Below, piece after piece: positions 6,959 through 22,398 of a stretch of 64,000 bases of DNA. Positions within the stretch are counted from its first letter, which is position 1. Each line of letters opens with the position of its first letter. The notes under the pieces are model-generated. The model did no database searches. It saw only the letters and a program-made list of their open reading frames with translations, and was not told where the DNA came from. The DNA comes from a virus (Duplodnaviria > Caudoviricetes): positions 9,170 through 73,169 of the IMG/VR virus record IMGVR_UViG_3300042317_000620; one strand, 5' to 3'. The translations under genes were made by a program, and so were the position numbers.

Positions 6959-7436
6959 TTCGCTCCTCATGTGTTGGCCAATAGTAATTGCATTTTTCAC
7001 AACATGGTTCATTGTATGGACTAATTGTTGCATACTGATACTTGTTATAAAAAATAGGATCCTTTTTAAATAGATTAGCCTTGTGAGTTGTTGTAATACG
7101 CATTACCTTATTGTCATTGGACCAGAACATTGGTGGGGTCTTTCCCCATCTACCCGAACATTTTTCTTTAAGATCATTAAGGTTGTTTTCATTGTTTATT
7201 GTCTTAATCCCACGAACCTTAGCCTCTTCTATCATGTGCTGTATATAAGACCACAGACCAGCCTCATAGCCCTTCCACATAAGCACTGCAGGGTGATTAC
7301 GCCATGCCCCAGACGGTGACTCTCCTGACAACACCTTGAGTATTTGATACCCCTCAAGGATTTGTTTATTAAGTCTTTTATTGTCTAAGGATTTTGCGGT
7401 ATATGAAATATTACTAGATGGAAGAAATGTTTGCAT
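6945..7436 (-). CDS. Pyrimidine-dimer DNA glycosylase / endonuclease V-like (MSMEG_6728 family)
   Basis: MQTFLP, LDNKRLNKQILE, HPAVLMWKG, YYWP. Confidence 0.8.
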   Translation of the reverse strand: MQTFLPSSNISYTAKSLDNKRLNKQILEGYQILKVLSGESPSGAWRNHPAVLMWKGYEAGLWSYIQHMIEEAKVRGIKTINNENNLNDLKEKCSGRWGKTPPMFWSNDNKVMRITTTHKANLFKKDPIFYNKYQYATISPYNEPCCEKCNYYWPTHEERNALV

Positions 7437-7558
7437 TAAACAACCTTAAGGGTATTGCAACGAGTACAGCCAACATATGTATTACCAGTAAATGGACATG
7501 CTCCAGCATCTACAAGAACATGACCTTTAAATTTGCAGACTAATCTTTGCATAATCAT
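7436..7558 (-). CDS. 40-aa Cys/His zinc-finger-like protein, not in the ORF track
   Basis: MIMQRLVCKFKGH...CPF...CTRC; ATGA and TAATG overlaps with both neighbours. Confidence 0.65.
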   Translation of the reverse strand: MIMQRLVCKFKGHVLVDAGACPFTGNTYVGCTRCNTLKVV

Positions 7559-7785
7559 TTTCCACCAGTCCTAACTAACATGACTATAGCGCCATTTTCT
7601 TCTAAGGCTTTTTTAACCCTTACCATATATTCTACAGCAAGTCTCTTATCTCTGTCAAATAACTTCATAAAACTTGTTTCGTCTGCTCTTACTGTAATAA
7701 AATGCTCATTATCAATAATATCTACACCAAATCCTTTTGGTGGGGCAATAGATCTAACGGCTCGCCTCATTGCGTCTGTATACAC
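7555..7785 (-). CDS. Hypothetical protein, leaderless
   Basis: GTG start 6 nt after TAGAAT; fits gene packing. Confidence 0.6.
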   Translation of the reverse strand: MYTDAMRRAVRSIAPPKGFGVDIIDNEHFITVRADETSFMKLFDRDKRLAVEYMVRVKKALEENGAIVMLVRTGGK

Positions 7786-8215: not shown

Positions 8216-9575
8216 TTTTATTCCTATTATATAAATAATAATTTAAATCTTCTGGAGTTCCAACTCCCCACATTTCTTCAACTAATAAAGCATAAATCTT
8301 TTTTTCATCCTGAATTGCTTCATTAAATATTGGACAAACATAAAATTCATTGTTTGTGCGAATATTTTTATCAATCATTTGGTTTGCATATTTTACAAAG
8401 TCTGAGCCATGTTTCCAGTAATATATTCCTACCGTTGCATTATCACTTATAGGTTTTTTTTCAGCAACTTCTGAAACTAATCCGTCATCATTTGTTTTTG
8501 CATAAGACCATTTTGGATGTGAAGATTTAAATATTGCTATTGCTCCATCAGCATTTTTAGTATATAAATCATATAAAAAATTTTTACTATTCCATTTTAT
8601 TATTTGATCAGAATTGGCAATAATTAACGGATTGTCATTATTAATATAATCTTTTGCCAATAAACATGTTATTGCTGCACCTTCTGTAATCTCAGAAATT
8701 TGTATAATATTACAATTAGGCGTTATAGCATTTAATAAATATTCTAAATTGTATTTTTCAAAATGTTCTTGCTGAACTATATACGTATATGTTGCATTAA
8801 TGCCTAAACTTTTTACAACTGCCTGAATCATTGGCATACCACCAATATCAACTAATGGCTTAGGAAAAGCATATCCAGCATCCAAAAATCTACTTCCTGC
8901 TCCAGCCATCGGAATAAGTATATTAAGACTGTAGTCTGTCCAAACATCATTATTGTTACTTAAATATTCAATTGCTTGATTAATTTTTTCTAAAGATAGG
9001 TCTAATCTATTGGTAACTTGAATAAGTTTTGAGTTACTATCAGTTGCAGCAAGTTTACCCACAAAACTATCTTCAAAAATTACTGTGTTTTGTGGTAAGG
9101 TTCCAAAATATGACATTGCCTTCCAATACATTTCTGGATGTGGTTTGCAAAACTGAACATCTTCATTAGAAATAATGTAGTCTACTAAACTTATTATTCC
9201 TAAAGATGTTAAGCATTGATCAACGGTTGCTCTTATACTATTGCTTGCAACTGCAATTTTTATTCCTTGTTTTTTGATATGTTGAAAAAAATAAAATAAT
9301 TCTGTATCTAGACTTAAATTTTTAAAATAAAGGCTAGTGGCAAACTGTTTGTCTTTCCATATTTGATCATAGTATTTTTCTTCTAAACCCTTATACTTAG
9401 ATAATAATTTTAATTTTTCTTTTGTTGGCAACCCTTCATATATTTGTTCTTGCTCTTTATTAGAAATAACATATTCACTATTAACATTTTTTAATGCATG
9501 GTTTAAAGATGAAAAATGTATAGTTTTGCTATCAACCAATACTCCATCTAAATCAAAAACAATCAATTTATTCAT
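8208..9575 (-). CDS. HAD phosphatase fused to a sugar-phosphate nucleotidyltransferase
   Basis: FDLDGVL, KPHP, FEDS (HAD); IPMAGAGSRF, PKPL, EKK, GTPEDL (NTP transferase). Confidence 0.85.
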   Translation of the reverse strand: MNKLIVFDLDGVLVDSKTIHFSSLNHALKNVNSEYVISNKEQEQIYEGLPTKEKLKLLSKYKGLEEKYYDQIWKDKQFATSLYFKNLSLDTELFYFFQHIKKQGIKIAVASNSIRATVDQCLTSLGIISLVDYIISNEDVQFCKPHPEMYWKAMSYFGTLPQNTVIFEDSFVGKLAATDSNSKLIQVTNRLDLSLEKINQAIEYLSNNNDVWTDYSLNILIPMAGAGSRFLDAGYAFPKPLVDIGGMPMIQAVVKSLGINATYTYIVQQEHFEKYNLEYLLNAITPNCNIIQISEITEGAAITCLLAKDYINNDNPLIIANSDQIIKWNSKNFLYDLYTKNADGAIAIFKSSHPKWSYAKTNDDGLVSEVAEKKPISDNATVGIYYWKHGSDFVKYANQMIDKNIRTNNEFYVCPIFNEAIQDEKKIYALLVEEMWGVGTPEDLNYYLYNRNKND

Positions 9576-10608
9576 GATAAACCCTTTTAAAAAATTGATT
9601 AATCCATTCATTATTTTTTAATAATTCTACTAAATCTGACCCATTTGATTTATAAAGATTTTTTATTGAAATATGCGTATGACCTTTAACCCATGAAAAG
9701 TCTCTATAAAAACTGTGTAAAGATAATTCATGTGTAACTGTTAATGTGTTTGGGTTAAATGGATTTCCACCTATAGGGGTATATAATTCTATTACATTTC
9801 CCTCATCTTGCATCATTAACATATTAATGAGCCCACTGCCAGTAAGCCCTATTAAAGTTTTTACAGAATTAAAATATTCAATTTGTTCTTCAAAAGTTTT
9901 AAAGTTTTCTGCTGCAACAATCTCACATCCAAAATTTTGAAAAAAGTCAACTAAACTCTCTTCGCCTTCAGTTCTAGCATTTGCAACCCAGTTTGCTGAG
10001 TTAGAAACTGCTGACCTACTTAAATAAACTGTTTTATTTGAAATAATTGTTTTATCTTTGGGTAAGTATTTTTTAAAAAGTTTTGATAGAACTGCTAATT
10101 GTTGTTCTTGCATCATTTGCGGATTCCATAGAGCATAATTATTAATTTGAAGTATTAAGTCTTTATTAGGATATGCTTCATCACTTTGAACTTGTTTATT
10201 ATTACTTTCTATAGATCTACTTCTAATAAAAATATAATTAATTTCTAAATCAGTTAATACTTTAAGAAAAAATGTAAAATAGGTTGGACCATCTCCATCA
10301 AACCAAGACGGGGGTATGTCTGATGTTTCTAAGACAAAACTAAACTTTCTTCTTTGTTTTTTATAATATGCATCCATAATAATTATTAAAGAAAGATTAT
10401 CTATAAAAAGATGAAACATGCGTGGATGTAAGGCAAAAAGTATTTTAAAATCATCATCAATTATTTTTATAATATTCTTTTTATTAACAACTTCTTCTTT
10501 ATTTAAAGTTCTAAAAGATTGAAATGGTTTTCTATACTCTAAATATCCTTCTTCTGGATTCAATAGAAGTAAACGGTACATTCCTATTTGATTAATTGAT
10601 AGTGCCAT
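9568..10608 (-). CDS. GT61 (DUF563) glycosyltransferase
   Basis: FH, VYLSR, FEEQIEYF, IGLTGSGLINMLMM, VIEL. Confidence 0.75.
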   Translation of the reverse strand: MALSINQIGMYRLLLLNPEEGYLEYRKPFQSFRTLNKEEVVNKKNIIKIIDDDFKILFALHPRMFHLFIDNLSLIIIMDAYYKKQRRKFSFVLETSDIPPSWFDGDGPTYFTFFLKVLTDLEINYIFIRSRSIESNNKQVQSDEAYPNKDLILQINNYALWNPQMMQEQQLAVLSKLFKKYLPKDKTIISNKTVYLSRSAVSNSANWVANARTEGEESLVDFFQNFGCEIVAAENFKTFEEQIEYFNSVKTLIGLTGSGLINMLMMQDEGNVIELYTPIGGNPFNPNTLTVTHELSLHSFYRDFSWVKGHTHISIKNLYKSNGSDLVELLKNNEWINQFFKRVYHE

Positions 10609-11481: not shown

Positions 11482-11863
11482 TCTTACTCCTATCAGTTAG
11501 TTTATCTAGTATATTAAGCATTTTTTTTAATTCTTCTTTTGACATACCTTCTGTATTTACAGGAGATGTTGTTGATCGATCCACATTACCATCTTCAACA
11601 TCGGCTTTATAAAAAATATTTTTATGAACCCAGTATGCATAATCTTCAGTTATTAAAACATCTATAATACTTTCTCTATTACGTTTTCTTGACTGAGTAT
11701 CTTTTACATCAATTGGAACCAAGTCTGGCAAAAATGGACCAATAATCTGATGTATACTACTTTGTCGATATTTAATTTTAGACCTTTTTTCTTTAGGCTT
11801 TCTTATATAAATTATAGCAAGAATAGCGACCGTTGTCAAGAACGATACAAGAAAATCATTCAT
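11453..11863 (-). CDS. Hypothetical membrane-anchored protein, leaderless
   Basis: N-terminal TM helix then basic patch; TACAAT 6 nt before ATG. Confidence 0.6.
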   Translation of the reverse strand: MNDFLVSFLTTVAILAIIYIRKPKEKRSKIKYRQSSIHQIIGPFLPDLVPIDVKDTQSRKRNRESIIDVLITEDYAYWVHKNIFYKADVEDGNVDRSTTSPVNTEGMSKEELKKMLNILDKLTDRSKNEGRGAGDK

Positions 11864-18284: not shown

Positions 18285-18297
18285 GTTTCTCCTTTCG

Positions 18298-18368
18298 AGC
18301 CTCTTGTAAGAATCGAACTTACGCCATCCGCTTACAAGGCGGAGGCACTACCACTATGCTAAAGAGGC
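18298..18368 (-). tRNA. trnT: tRNA-Thr(UGU), CCA not encoded
   Basis: Acceptor GCCTCTT/AAGAGGC, D arm GCAT/GTGC, anticodon arm TCCGC-CTTGTAA-GCGGA, T arm GTAAG-TTCGATT-CTTAC. Confidence 0.93.
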
Positions 18369-19488: not shown

Positions 19489-19671
19489 TTAGCCCTCCTC
19501 TCTATTTCTTATTGGACTTGTGATTATCCAAAGAGTTGTAGTCGCTATGATTCCATAACCAACTATTGTTTTTGCACTACCATCTAATACTACCCAGGCA
19601 ATAAACATTCCAAGAAGGGTCCATGCCTGATCTATTAGATCTTTTATTATATTTTTTATTATTCTTACCAT
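19489..19671 (-). CDS. Small membrane protein
   Basis: Two hydrophobic helices; overlaps the upstream gene end. Confidence 0.6.
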   Translation of the reverse strand: MVRIIKNIIKDLIDQAWTLLGMFIAWVVLDGSAKTIVGYGIIATTTLWIITSPIRNREEG

Positions 19672-21809
19672 TTTCTTCCTCCTCTTGAACCTGGTGAATT
19701 TGCTCCTGAAGAGCCTCCCCCAGAACTTCCTCCGCTACCTGAACCTCCTGTAGCGCCACCTGCTGCTACTGCTGCTGCGTTAATTGCTGCACCTGTTGCA
19801 ACAACTGTTGCCACAACCATATCTGTTGCTTCTTCTCGTTCTTCCTCAGTCATATCTGCACCAATACTTCCAAGGGCTGCTAATGCTGCTCCTGGGTCAG
19901 TAAATGCTGCTTCTAATAATGCTCCTGGGTCTTGAACTAATTCTATGTTTGCAGCAACTTCAGCAGTAATAATAAGTGCGTTTCCATTTTCGTCAGTGCG
20001 TAGTTCTACTGGTGTTTCTGGTGGAAGATCTGCGTATGAAACTCCAGATGCCTGTACTTCTGCTGCTGAAATTGATTCTCCTGGCTTAAGATCTTCTATT
20101 AGTGCTGCTACTACAACATCTTTTTGTTCTTCAGTTAATTCTTTACCATCTTTTGCATCTTCAAGTATTTCGTTTAATTCTTCTTCTTCTGCTTTTGCTT
20201 CTTCTTCAGCAGCCTTTTCTTCTTCTAATTCTTTTGCTTCGGCTTCTTCAGCAATTCTTTTTTCTTCTGCAAGTGCTTCAGCCTCTGCTTCTGCCTTTGC
20301 TTTTGCAATTGCTTCTTCTTCTGCTGCTATACGCTCAGCCTCTGCCTTTGCTTCTTCTGCAAGTCTTTCTTCTTCCGCTATGCGCTCTGCTTCTATGCGT
20401 TCAGCCTCTGCTTTTGCTTCTGCTTCTGCTTTTTCTTCTGCTTCTTTAAGTTCTGCTGCAATGCGATCTGCTTCTTCTTGGGCTTCTATCTCTGCTTGAA
20501 TTCTTGCTGCTTCAATCTCTGCTGCTTCACGGTCAGCCTTTTCTTTTAGTTCCAATTCTGCTTTAATTCTTTCTGCTTCTTGTGCTGCTTGAAGTGCTGC
20601 AATTCTTTCAGCCTCCGCTTGGGCTGCTGCTGCCTGGGCTGCAATCAATGCTGCTGTTTCTGCCTGTATCCTTGCTGCTTCTGCTTGTTGTGCTGCTGCT
20701 TGGGCTGCTACCTGTGCTGCAATTTCTGCTTCAGTTGGTCCAGTTGGTATTGTTACAGTTGCTGTTTCGCTAGGTGTAGGCGTTGTTACTGTTGTTGTTT
20801 CAGGTGTAGGTGTTGTTACAGTCGTTGTTTCAGGTGTTGGCGTTGTGACTGTTATTGTTTCAGGTGTAGGTATTGTTACTGTTGCTGTTTGAGAAGGGCT
20901 AGGGGTTGGAGTAGGGGTAGGCTCTGGAGCAGGGGCTACATATGTAGAACCAGTAACAACATTTGAATTTGCAGAGTAAAGGGAGAAGGTATCGTTATCT
21001 GATCTAATATGAAATGACCAGATTGTTCCTGCTGGCATAAGTCCATTTAGCAAGGAATGGTCAATTGTAATTGTTGTATTTAAAGAGTTTGGTCCGCCAA
21101 CATTTCCAGTAGCAATTCCCCAACCATTACATCCAGTACAATTAAAACTAATTGCATATCTTTCTGGTTGAGTGTTTCCAGTGTCTGGTGCTTCCCAACT
21201 TAAAACTGTTGATGTTTCTCCACTACTTATTGTTAAATTTCTTGGAGGTCCTATTGTTTTTACTACTGGGGCTGCCTGCGAAGTAAATGCTGATGCTGGA
21301 ATAATATCCATAGATCCAGATTGATCCCAATGAAGGAATACATTTGCTCCCCCGCCATTTTCATAATACATTAATTCTATTGTTTTGGGGACTCCTGCTG
21401 TGAAAGATATTGGATCAGTTGTAGTTCCTCCGCCACCTTTGTCAACCCAGTCATCTGCCACTAAAATTCCATCAATATACAGTCTTGTTCCATCATCTGC
21501 TGTTGCTAAAAATGATATATTCTGAGTCGCATTACTAAGGATTGAACCAGTAAAACGTACGATAACATCCTCTGAGGGCCCACCTAAGACGCTACCACCA
21601 CCCCACTGGAAGTCAATGTTGGGTACAGTGGTAGTCACGACTGGAGAGGCTCCCTGGGGTATGTAGGGAGAGCCATTTTGTCCCAGCACATTATAGACCT
21701 CAGCAGTTATGCCGTTAGTGTTTGTGGCACCTGCTTCTTCTGAAAATACAAAGAAGGAAGTGGCTAAAACTATACACAATACTACAAGGATTCGGGCAAT
21801 CCGTTTCAA
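19665..21809 (-). CDS. Exported PA14 + FN3 protein with Pro/Thr linker and Glu/Ala coiled coil
   Basis: Signal peptide; IDFQWG, ADDG.RLYIDG, YYENGGGA (PA14); PPRNL...LSWEAP (FN3). Confidence 0.8.
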   Translation of the reverse strand: MKRIARILVVLCIVLATSFFVFSEEAGATNTNGITAEVYNVLGQNGSPYIPQGASPVVTTTVPNIDFQWGGGSVLGGPSEDVIVRFTGSILSNATQNISFLATADDGTRLYIDGILVADDWVDKGGGGTTTDPISFTAGVPKTIELMYYENGGGANVFLHWDQSGSMDIIPASAFTSQAAPVVKTIGPPRNLTISSGETSTVLSWEAPDTGNTQPERYAISFNCTGCNGWGIATGNVGGPNSLNTTITIDHSLLNGLMPAGTIWSFHIRSDNDTFSLYSANSNVVTGSTYVAPAPEPTPTPTPSPSQTATVTIPTPETITVTTPTPETTTVTTPTPETTTVTTPTPSETATVTIPTGPTEAEIAAQVAAQAAAQQAEAARIQAETAALIAAQAAAAQAEAERIAALQAAQEAERIKAELELKEKADREAAEIEAARIQAEIEAQEEADRIAAELKEAEEKAEAEAKAEAERIEAERIAEEERLAEEAKAEAERIAAEEEAIAKAKAEAEAEALAEEKRIAEEAEAKELEEEKAAEEEAKAEEEELNEILEDAKDGKELTEEQKDVVVAALIEDLKPGESISAAEVQASGVSYADLPPETPVELRTDENGNALIITAEVAANIELVQDPGALLEAAFTDPGAALAALGSIGADMTEEEREEATDMVVATVVATGAAINAAAVAAGGATGGSGSGGSSGGGSSGANSPGSRGGRKW
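20750..20935 (-). repeat. Imperfect ~30-nt coding repeats (TVTTPTPET-like) and PT dipeptide run
   Basis: TATVTIPTPE, TITVTTPTPE, TTTVTTPTPE, TTTVTTPTPS in the translation. Confidence 0.75.
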
Positions 21810-21863
21810 TTATCTCTCCTAATCAAACTGGGTAGTCTGATAGGATTATTATAACATTAAATT

Positions 21864-21966
21864 AAAAAATGAGCAGTTTTTTACAGTCATACTCAGGACT
21901 ATACCAGTTATTTAATGTCGCTGTCTCCCCCGACAAACCTGCGACTCCCCGATGAAGAGGTGCAGA
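21864..21966 (-). ncRNA. Candidate structured small RNA: two hairpins plus a 3' H-type pseudoknot
   Basis: GC-rich island just after a TACAAT box; stems TCTGC/GCAGG, TGTCG/CGACA, ATAGTC/GACTGT; loop TGAGTA pairs with TGCTCA; ends in T6. Confidence 0.6.
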
Positions 21967-21981
21967 ATTACATTGTACCGA

Positions 21982-22398
21982 TTATTTGATTTTAATTGAT
22001 TTTGGTTTCTTTTCTTCTGGAATATTACGTGTAACTTTAACACTCAACATCCCATCAATTAGATCAGCGGTTGTTACTTCCATGTATTCACCAAGAGCAA
22101 ATGAGCGAGTAAACTTTCTTGCAGCGATTCCTTTATGTAATACTTCTGCATCTGTTACTGTTACTTGTTCTCCCTTGATAATTAATGTTCCCTGATCTAC
22201 TGAAATATCAAGGCTTTCTTTACTAAACCCTGCTACTGCTAGAGTAATAATATAGTTATCATTATCTAATTTAAGTAGATCATATGGTGGGAATCCACCT
22301 GCATTAATTGAATGTGCTTGGTTTAATCTGTCTAATTCCCGATTAAATCCAATAAAAAAGGGATCTTTAAAAAGATCCATAGCGAACGTTGTTACCAT
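21982..22398 (-). CDS. hsp20: Small heat-shock protein (Hsp20/IbpA family)
   Basis: FPPYD, LAVAGF, LHKGIAARKFTRSF, GML, PEEKKP..I.I. Confidence 0.92.
   Translation of the reverse strand: MVTTFAMDLFKDPFFIGFNRELDRLNQAHSINAGGFPPYDLLKLDNDNYIITLAVAGFSKESLDISVDQGTLIIKGEQVTVTDAEVLHKGIAARKFTRSFALGEYMEVTTADLIDGMLSVKVTRNIPEEKKPKSIKIK

Follow-up and report, generated by a model that had tools for sequence, protein, structure and literature searches.

A compact pseudoknot widespread in phages closes a modular structured RNA element behind hsp20

The window analysed here is a 64,000-nt stretch (positions 9,170 to 73,169) of the IMG/VR virus record IMGVR_UViG_3300042317_000620, a 73-kb record estimated to be 67% complete. 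On its minus strand, inside a 172-nt non-coding gap between an hsp20 gene and a gene for a PA14-domain protein, it carries a structured-RNA element composed of two hairpins (H1 and H2) and a compact pseudoknot (PK). We found that all three fold as RNA on the gene strand, that they assort as modules behind hsp20, and that the PK is a widespread phage element, uncatalogued in that it has no match in Rfam 15. We tentatively propose that the RNA is capped at both ends and that the PK defines and protects an RNA end. A sequence-only reading of the window had described a promoter-bounded structured non-coding RNA with a compact pseudoknot here; every string and coordinate that it gave is present on the minus strand of the gap, and both the RNA and its pseudoknot are borne out by the covariation and the fixed -10 spacing reported below.

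Three RNA folds and their covariation

Read 5' to 3', the gap holds the hsp20 stop codon, the box TACAAT, H1, H2, an A-rich linker, the PK, a run of six U (U6), an extended -10-like box, the ribosome-binding site AGGAG and a TTG start codon. The parts of the element are as follows.

21977-21972, minus strand: -10-like box TACAAT, the likely promoter of the RNA (start putative)
21939-21965, minus strand: hairpin H1, at the putative 5' end of the RNA
21965-21962 with 21942-21939, minus strand: outer stem of H1, CUGC/GCAG
21960-21957 with 21950-21947, minus strand: inner stem of H1, CCUC/GGGG
Within H1, minus strand: unpaired parts, namely the hexaloop UUCAUC and an asymmetric internal loop, A / AGUC
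21916-21935, minus strand: hairpin H2, with a 5-bp stem UGUCG/CGACA and a purine-rich 10-nt loop GGGGAGACAG
21904-21915, minus strand: A-rich linker UUAAAUAACUGG
21897-21902, minus strand: 5' arm of PK stem 1, AUAGUC, pairing with 21888-21883
21889-21896, minus strand: PK loop CUGAGUAU, in which UGAGUA (21895-21890) is the 5' strand of stem 2
21883-21888, minus strand: 3' arm of PK stem 1, GACUGU
21876-21882, minus strand: PK loop 3, AAAAAAC, in which the AAA before stem 2 is invariant
21870-21875, minus strand: 3' strand of PK stem 2, UGCUCA, a helix that RNAalifold picks
21864-21869, minus strand: U6 run, directly 3' of the PK

In the window the PK is a compact H-type pseudoknot of 33 nt, with a 6-bp stem 1, a 1-nt loop 1, a 6-bp stem 2 and an A-rich loop 3. 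Across the family, stem 1 has 4-7 bp, loop 1 has 1 nt, stem 2 has 5-6 bp and loop 3 has 4-9 nt ending in an invariant AAA, which was present in 30/30 picked PK units and in 30/30 full-length RNAs. The copy in the window shows the family traits in full: a free stem 1 closed by C-G, the loop C-YNRRNN, the invariant AAA and an intergenic position on the gene strand. A covariance model (R1), built from 30 PK units with stem 1 only, matched the window at 21864-21905 on the minus strand (49.4 bits, E 6e-10), which was the single R1 PK both in the window and in the whole 73-kb record. Across the window and 71 of 81 loci from other viral contigs, R1 gave 75 solid matches (E<=6e-5). These 81 loci (the prefix L marks loci from other viral contigs throughout) comprise the best 80 of more than 592 stretches from an hsp20-relative scan of viral contigs, together with one further contig whose gap is near-identical (97% identity over 176 nt).

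The unfiltered alignment derived from R1 contains 55 distinct rows, of which 53 are solid PK units. Of the cells at PK pairs in these 55 rows, 90.5% were paired, compared with 27-47% for slid partners and 78% for shuffles; as the aligned sequences are related, shuffle controls overstate the significance, and the slid-partner controls are fairer. Double changes were found at 8/12 PK pairs and in both helices. Stem-1 pairs covary freely among the PK relatives, and the three central stem-2 pairs were never broken (AU 41/GC 12; GC 50/AU 3; CG 32/UG 19/UA 2). One stem-2 pair is a U-G wobble in 19/53 cells; because such wobbles would read as A-C mismatches on the other strand, selection acts on the gene-strand RNA. 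Homologs and covariation were thus found for both helices of the PK and also for H1, and over 30 distinct full-length H1-H2-PK sequences 96.4% of cells were paired, against 24-46% for slid partners.

For H1, the register with outer stem CUGC/GCAG and a 4-bp inner stem was paired in 99.1% of cells (14 sequences), with compensatory changes at 3/4 inner pairs, and RNAalifold independently returned the same register. The G-U pairs of H1 make its fold strand-specific. The sequence-only reading had drawn this hairpin with a 6-bp register, CUCUUC/GGGGAG, around the loop AUC: the hairpin itself is real and conserved, but that register is not, being paired in 87.1% of cells, which is the shuffle level, and having one pair broken in 10/14 sequences. 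In H2, four stem pairs were invariant in 30/30 sequences, and the fifth was U-A, G-C or A-U and paired in 12/12 rows of an alignment inspected by eye (A5); the exact H2 18-mer was present in at least 120 viral contigs. The AAAUA and CUG of the linker were likewise invariant in 30/30 sequences. Pairing of this CUG (21907-21905) to CAG in the H2 loop (21923-21921) would give a possible second small pseudoknot of 3 bp, on which covariation is uninformative because both triplets are invariant. The window also has the other traits of the H1-H2-PK family (a -10 box 6 nt before H1, an H1 of 4+4 bp with an NUCAYY loop, the invariant H2, the AAAUA linker and the PK), and its row fits the alignment of the family (A6) without exception.

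As a single sequence the element is indistinguishable from chance, and by comparison with its relatives it is clearly real. A generic hairpin-plus-pseudoknot descriptor matched the window 161 times and shuffled sequence 102-176 times, and the opposite strand of the 114-nt element gave a fold z of -0.51 in a single-sequence test. The GC content is 62% over H1 and H2 (21916-21965), 42.1% over the entire element and 33.3% over the window.

The promoter is indicated by spacing. H1 begins at 21965, 6 nt past TACAAT, and in the H1/H2-bearing regions that we collected (the H1 pattern scan matched at least 120 viral contigs) the end of a TAYAAT box lay exactly 6 nt before H1 in 114 of the 165 unique regions listed and 6 nt before H2 in 21 H2-first regions among them, so that the 6-nt spacing to the first hairpin held in 135/165 overall. 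Because the regions were collected without reference to the box, this fixed spacing is good evidence for a promoter, and we infer that transcription begins at the base of the first hairpin. In addition, a TAYAAT-type box was found within 30 nt of the stop codon at 54/67 distinct hsp20 loci, and hsp20 lay upstream on the same strand in 135/160 unique H1/H2-bearing regions listed. For want of a -35 match, the TACAAT box is missed by a two-hexamer promoter scan. At three loci a -10 box is followed by ATG about 7 nt later (after the PK in L012 and L042; at the end of the RNA island in L433), giving leaderless-looking genes; these genes and the -10-only promoters may suggest an actinobacterial host.

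Modular assembly and distribution of the pseudoknot

At each locus, the 220 nt behind hsp20 are a mosaic of interchangeable structured modules in which the PK recurs almost everywhere. Among the 165 unique regions listed, the architecture was H1-H2-PK in 55 (the type of the window), H1-Hx-PK in 41, H1-PK in 27, H2-PK in 20 and H2 alone in 15, a loose PK regular expression having made false PK calls inside hsp20 in 5 of the 165. At least six module types occur behind hsp20, in many combinations and before differing genes. Judged from these sequences, the RNA is a chain of three independently evolving modules and not the one integrated fold of about 100 nt that had been read from the window. The sequence-only reading had also suggested that CUCUUC could switch between two GGGGAG partners; because H1 occurs without H2 and H2 without H1, a dedicated switch is unlikely and without comparative support. 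Nor is the RNA particular to this phage, since the same architecture and PK are present in many other viruses.

At loci L009 and L010 the same PA14 gene and promoter box are present, yet hsp20 leads straight into the PK and U6, with no -10 box, H1 or H2. Because the PK stays constant at the hsp20 end, the promoter, H1 and H2 together represent an insertion or a deletion relative to these two loci. The module Hx, a hairpin that substitutes for H2 in 41 of the 165 regions, has an NNGG/CCNN stem (CGGG/CCCG or CAGG/CCUG, covarying) and an NCGCUA loop; it lies between H1 and the PK in L013, L102, L155, L183, L198 and L454, and directly after hsp20 in L023, L025, L038, L047 and L070.

The PK is also found in unrelated phages far from any hsp20. 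A degenerate pattern fixing only the PK loop and the 3' strand matched at least 120 viral contigs, and in the 140 viral matches listed a stem 1 of at least 4 bp was present in 112 and one of at least 3 bp in 138. The same pattern gave 118 matches in 596 Gb of bacterial genomes, mostly chance, with a stem 1 of at least 4 bp in 27. Because the pattern omitted stem 1, its excess in the viral matches serves as an internal check that the fold is real. The bacterial match list was dropped as evidence of host range: it is mostly chance, and its named isolates (Aliivibrio, Pseudomonas) had no stem 1 of at least 4 bp.

Cultured phages carry the PK as well. A blastn search listed 88 phage records (E<=10), four of which were checked by eye. 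Synechococcus phage S-SM2, from a separate blastn search, has one copy at 43 bits that was confirmed by the model and by eye. In Roseophage SIO1 the PK starts 12 nt past the ribonucleotide reductase gene, in Lactobacillus phage KC5a it lies between the prohead protease and scaffold genes, and in Arthrobacter phage Amigo it lies 3 nt past the stop codon of the single-stranded DNA-binding protein (SSB) gene and 2 nt before tRNA-Gly. A crAss-like phage (cr7_1) also has the PK. The stem-2 and loop sequence is conserved in phages of Actinobacteria, Firmicutes, Bacteroidota, Proteobacteria and Cyanobacteria. With a family that is large, strongly covarying and represented in cultured phages (S-SM2, SIO1, KC5a and Amigo), the function of the PK is directly testable.

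The genomic context was counted at 137 non-identical viral sites among the matches listed, so that the counts are lower bounds and not prevalences; genes were taken from crude calls of open reading frames (ORFs) of at least 70 aa. The PK was intergenic at 132/137 sites. A same-strand gene lay upstream at 109/137, with a median of 16 nt from stop codon to stem 1 (<=11 nt at 50/109), and a same-strand gene lay downstream at 95/137. A same-strand tRNA followed the PK at 19 sites, starting 4-13 nt past it in 16/19, and a tRNA preceded it at one site, indicating that the PK is found before rather than after tRNAs. An opposite-strand neighbour was called at 23 sites; these calls, made with the crude ORFs, mostly dissolve by eye and give no verdict on a 5' versus a 3' role. 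G is almost absent from the 8 nt 3' of the PK, and CCA is the commonest triplet after it, at 18/137 sites (13%), a share that weakened the idea of a tRNA mimic.

Five other virus records, related or PK-bearing, namely those holding L002, L019, L061, L138 and L149, have 4-7 PK copies each (E<=0.001). The multiple copies are clustered, one after each gene, in a block that contains, in order, genes for proteins of about 55 aa, about 140 aa (coiled-coil) and about 135 aa, the DUF932 gene and then tRNA-Asp; this early-looking block recurs in otherwise different phages. The clusters are located as follows.

G001:C1:13659-16243: PK cluster
G003:C1:5577-10822: PK cluster
G004:C1:26173-29087: PK cluster
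G005:C1:32269-35807: PK cluster
G002:C1:1681-2816: PK cluster

The PK was considered as a marker of capsid genes, and this was dropped as a general rule, the cluster genes being DUF932 and small coiled-coil protein genes and not structural ones. Tandem PKs, two or three within 60-170 nt and with other small hairpins between them, were seen in L186 (~7400-7600, plus strand), L128 (11872-11954, plus strand) and L106 (~9933-10030, plus strand). L186 also has a phage-borne match to transfer-messenger RNA (tmRNA) at 11486-11558 on the plus strand (47.3 bits, cut-off 47), about 95 nt past a PK. Words resembling a hammerhead core (CUGAYGAG ... CGAAAC) occur after the PK of L086 (13750-13773), about 30 nt past it, and after the PK of L090 (minus strand, 2605-2628); both score below the Rfam gathering threshold.

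Proposed role and alternatives

The neighbours of the element that bear on its role are the following.

21982-22398, minus strand: hsp20 gene, an ORF with a Pfam HSP20 match (E 1e-17), directly upstream of the RNA, whose promoter region lies in the 3' end of this gene
21848-21856, minus strand: extended -10-like box TGTTATAAT, likely the own promoter of the PA14-domain gene
21820-21816, minus strand: ribosome-binding site AGGAG of the PA14-domain gene
21809-21807, minus strand: TTG start codon of the PA14-domain gene
19665-21809, minus strand: PA14-domain gene (PA14 29.3 bits, cut-off 24), with the TTG start

We consider it the best single account, although at somewhat less than even odds, that the RNA is capped at both ends and that the PK defines and protects an RNA end. 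A modular non-coding RNA of about 100 nt would be driven by a promoter at the extreme 3' end of hsp20, and H1 would fold from the first transcribed bases and shield the 5' end; in other leaders, a hairpin flush with the 5' end is established to hide it from 5'-end-dependent RNases. H2 would be a conserved payload hairpin that displays its purine-rich loop. The PK would serve as transcript punctuation, an autonomous and mechanically tough fold between co-directional genes, most likely protecting the 3' end that termination or processing just downstream would give the upstream RNA. Transcripts from hsp20 and from the small promoter would most likely halt, or be trimmed back, at the PK, because U6 and then the extended -10 box of the PA14 gene follow it here. 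This would yield an hsp20 mRNA whose 3' end is protected, together with a doubly capped small RNA. In phage Amigo, RNase P cleavage at tRNA-Gly would leave an mRNA ending in the PK. Among the guesses of the sequence-only reading, that of a nuclease-resistant RNA comes closest to this proposal.

Several observations favour a role at the 3' end. RNase P acting at a downstream tRNA makes a naked 3' end a few bases past the PK, and a protector of 5' ends would be pointless before a tRNA. The PK simply tails hsp20 in L009 and L010. PK-less units behind hsp20 end in a long closing stem and a T-run, and T-runs after the PK go with a next -10-like box, which likely begins a new transcription unit. Where a T-run was defined as at least 5 T within the first 7-8 nt after the PK, it was present in 17/27 regions of the -10-box class and 20/98 of the ribosome-binding-site class among those listed (p 6e-5), and in the hsp20-anchored set in 17/28 with a -10-like box next and 3/26 with a ribosome-binding site next (p 2e-4). 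The window, in which the PK is followed by U6 and then TGTTATAAT, belongs to the minority class; boxes of the TGTTATAAT type after the PK were also found in L002-L005, L009-L011 and L082.

Other results weigh against this proposal. The PK is no terminator in the general case, and it is found within 5' leaders just as often as at 3' ends, because a ribosome-binding site and gene follow it in 98/160 unique regions listed, a -10-like box following in 27, and because the PK clusters have no evident promoter after each PK. A simple terminator scan found no terminator at the PK on the minus strand. In compact phage genomes, the short gaps put any intergenic element near both of its neighbours, which weakens the argument from spacing. 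Stem 2, loop 1 and loop 3 are far more constrained in sequence than a mere roadblock seems to need, which hints at a specific partner or chemistry. The 114-nt element is not unusually stable on its own (minimum free energy -23.2 kcal/mol, z=+0.09), 108/200 shuffles being equally stable. Finally, the RNA ends are placed from sequence, the RNA data consisting of assembled contigs from relatives. These contigs (88% likeness) cover hsp20 and the gap pieces 21867-21941 and 21941-21978 and cannot show ends, strand or level. A search of sequencing runs gave only small shares (0.06-0.13), in RNA libraries labelled freshwater or lake and available as contigs, and we weighed these data neither for nor against expression or habitat.

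A bolder form of the proposal, which we regard as unlikely, would make the PK a protein-independent, direction-specific roadblock to exonucleases and, with a U-run, to polymerase. It would then be the phage counterpart of the exonuclease-resistant RNAs (xrRNAs) of eukaryotic viruses, a universal punctuation mark for transcripts in phages of all major bacterial phyla, and the first pseudoknot terminator, and H1-H2-PK might be an ultra-stable small RNA (sRNA) whose H2 loop acts as a decoy in trans while the phage infects.

Three further explanations seem to us rather improbable, and equally so. In the first, the element would be a regulatory leader (a riboswitch, a protein-binding operator or a thermosensor) for the downstream gene, with the PK or H2 as the sensor. 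Its unpaired positions are indeed highly conserved (the internal loop and hexaloop of H1, the H2 loop, the AAAUA linker and the AAA of the PK), the chain stands directly before a ribosome-binding site and gene in the 98 of 160 regions mentioned above, and an H-type knot with an A-rich third loop is the topology of several small riboswitch aptamers. However, the downstream genes are unrelated: those behind PKs of the ribosome-binding-site class are mostly thermonuclease-like (MFEYRVKQ) or zinc-ribbon-like (MPxYEYKC), and lysin-like, PA14 and other genes also occur. A separate -10-like box precedes the gene in the window and in 26 other regions listed, the PK stops about 8-12 nt short of the ribosome-binding site and leaves it uncovered, and the PK also precedes tRNAs and trails many different genes. 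Moreover, L009 and L010 carry the same PA14 gene without H1 or H2, and Rfam 15 scans of the locus gave no riboswitch model match.

In the second, the element would be a trans-acting sRNA or decoy whose H2 loop GGGGAGACAG titrates a pyrimidine-rich RNA (ribosomal or messenger) or a protein; the sequence-only reading had raised a decoy role for the RNA, and for this loop such a role is possible. A -10 box of its own precedes the element, and a T-run and then a new -10-like box come after it, so that it may be a discrete transcription unit; the H2 loop is nearly invariant in at least 120 contigs, and L433 has tandem promoter-plus-RNA units. Set against this, H2 is optional, H1-Hx-PK (41) and H1-PK (27) among the 165 regions lacking it; most copies lead directly into a gene; and a discrete small RNA was not seen in the RNA contigs of relatives, which cannot show ends.

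In the third, the PK would be a processing signal, for instance a stacked 12-bp helix recognized by a universal RNase, such as a mimic of a tRNA arm for RNase P, or else a tiny self-cleaving RNA that would divide polycistronic phage transcripts into units. The conservation of stem 2 and the loops across five host groups would fit a universal partner or chemistry, the PK is common immediately before tRNA genes (19/132 sites listed), and the prevalence of CCA and near absence of G over 8 nt after it point the same way. Yet CCA is found at 13% of the sites listed only, no known ribozyme model matches, the hammerhead-like words lie below the Rfam threshold and, to our knowledge, 33 nt is smaller than any known self-cleaving class.

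Slightly more doubtful still is an unusual intrinsic terminator formed by the PK and U6, the PK without a U-run being merely a pause site. U6 lies directly 3' of stem 2, stem 1 being trailed by A6 and not by U, and T-runs are enriched where a new -10-like box follows; but such a T-run might just as well belong to the AT-rich spacer of the promoter that follows, the scan does not call PK-U6, two of the 6 bp of stem 2 are weak, and we know of no pseudoknot terminator. The strong mosaicism of the gap behind hsp20, with its six or more module types, might also reflect DNA-level or selfish promoter-plus-hairpin cassettes driving recombination and gene shuffling there, but this is very improbable given that compensatory changes, strand-specific G-U pairs and a pseudoknot helix reflect selection on an RNA fold and that the PK occurs in unrelated phages, distant from hsp20.

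Known RNAs, neighbouring genes and further modules

Consistent with the sequence-only reading, which could place the element in no known family, Rfam 15 had no family at the element (21500-22300, E<=10), the three weak matches being unrelated and none of them at the PK. A scan of the window and 15 loci at the gathering thresholds returned tRNAs only, and further Rfam scans gave no relevant family for nine loci at gathering, for the seven-PK locus at E<=5 or for L433 at E<=2. No description of the element was found in the available parts of the literature, PMC2864571, PMC10690425 and the Minerva preprint included; PMC10690425 reports, in its available part, 10,006 unnamed candidate RNAs from IMG/VR, and these may contain the motif.

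Membership in the preQ1-I, pistol or ToxI families, whose folds the element had been noted to recall loosely, was not supported. The preQ1-I model had no match at E<=10. The PK shares its size and topology with preQ1-I, in that stem 1 has 5-6 bp, loop 1 is short, loop 3 is rich in A and the hairpin loop pairs with the 3' strand; it differs in having no queuosine genes downstream, where PA14, thermonuclease-like, zinc-ribbon-like or lysin-like genes or tRNAs are found instead, in that its stem 2 excludes the ribosome-binding site and ends 8-12 nt before it, and in being multi-copy, at gene ends and before tRNAs. Pistol had no Rfam match, and downstream of the PK the sequence varies, contains little G and shows no conserved helices. 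No tandem repeat of the ToxI type was found in the RNA, the only repeat being a 10-nt unit present 2.2 times inside the end of hsp20.

wcaG and manA are cyanophage structured RNAs of unknown function, and manA adjoins ibpA (hsp20-type) genes, as given in the available part of PMC2864571. The present element is likewise a phage-borne structured RNA, but it lies downstream of hsp20 and not upstream. The best match to the wcaG model (RF01761) in the 73-kb record reached 8.8 bits (cut-off 42) and lay elsewhere; manA had no match in the Rfam searches of the locus or of the window and 15 loci, and the xrRNA families had none in the Rfam searches. Class 3 plant-virus xrRNAs (PMC12397905) and the coremin motif (PMC10321173, PMC10520033) are small autonomous folds whose hairpin is fixed in place by base pairing to a strand further downstream, and viruses use them as mechanical blocks that create stable RNA ends; frameshifter-type H-type pseudoknots are reported to be able to stall Xrn1 as well. 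The PK is also a small hairpin locked by a downstream strand, known here from its sequence. Unlike the xrRNAs, it is hosted by phages of bacteria, and its location, ahead of tRNAs and immediately behind stop codons, suggests that it is the upstream and not the downstream RNA that would be protected. Many of these host groups lack a 5'-3' exonuclease.

RNase III sites of phage T7 and REP-type 3' stem-loops are intercistronic structures that punctuate polycistronic RNA and protect the upstream message. The PK similarly occupies short gaps between co-directional genes, but it is a pseudoknot with conserved loops and not a long duplex, and it is common to phages of very different hosts. In the aprE, ermC and ompA leaders, 5'-terminal stem-loops stabilize bacterial mRNAs; H1, at the putative first transcribed base, has the same geometry, which would block 5'-end-dependent decay, whereas the conservation of its internal loop and hexaloop suggests more than a generic hairpin. 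Promoter-early stem-loop (PeSL) cassettes of T4-type phages combine a promoter and a hairpin that border shuffled gene cassettes in the hyperplastic region. Their promoter type and sequences differ from those seen here, where the covariation is of the RNA type and the unit ends in a pseudoknot. By analogy, the PK may be functionally most like the intercistronic stabilizing or processing structures of phage operons and the viral xrRNAs, and it is topologically like preQ1-I.

If the proposed end protection is correct, one very small, portable RNA module, common to phages of very different hosts, would set the limits of transcripts and determine how long RNAs last. Such a module would help to explain unequal gene output within one operon and the survival of mRNAs beside tRNA processing sites, and it would offer synthetic biology an insulator or stabilizer part of about 33 nt.

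The PA14-domain protein encoded downstream of the element (19665-21809, minus strand) has 714 aa, with a signal-like N-terminus, repeats rich in Thr and Pro (TPTPETTTVT...) and a long coiled stretch rich in Ala and Glu; by its sequence it resembles phage proteins of the adhesin type that are secreted or surface-exposed. The sole tRNA gene of the window, tRNA-Thr(UGU) at 18297-18368 on the minus strand, has no adjoining PK.

The gap behind hsp20 in freshwater-type phages appears to be a nursery of uncatalogued small structured RNAs. One of them, module c (about 85-95 nt), replaces the PK-ending units within the first ~110 nt after hsp20 in L017, L020, L022, L031, L043 and L069, and it follows H2 on the minus strand in L433. 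It has a closing stem of 12-13 bp, a multi-branched core and then a T-run, with its own TAYAAT box 6-7 nt upstream. Rfam gave no match for module c, nor for module d (about 110 nt), which has a TATAAT box and three hairpins starting UUCCG...ACGGAUGCUC and ends in a variant of the PK with a 10-nt loop, where pairing between loop and 3' strand could extend to 8 bp. Module d was found in L030, L042, L049, L063, L068, L074-L076, L079, L084, L085, L173 and L433, and a related module b in L002-L008. In L433, tandem promoter-plus-structured-RNA units stand in succession behind hsp20.

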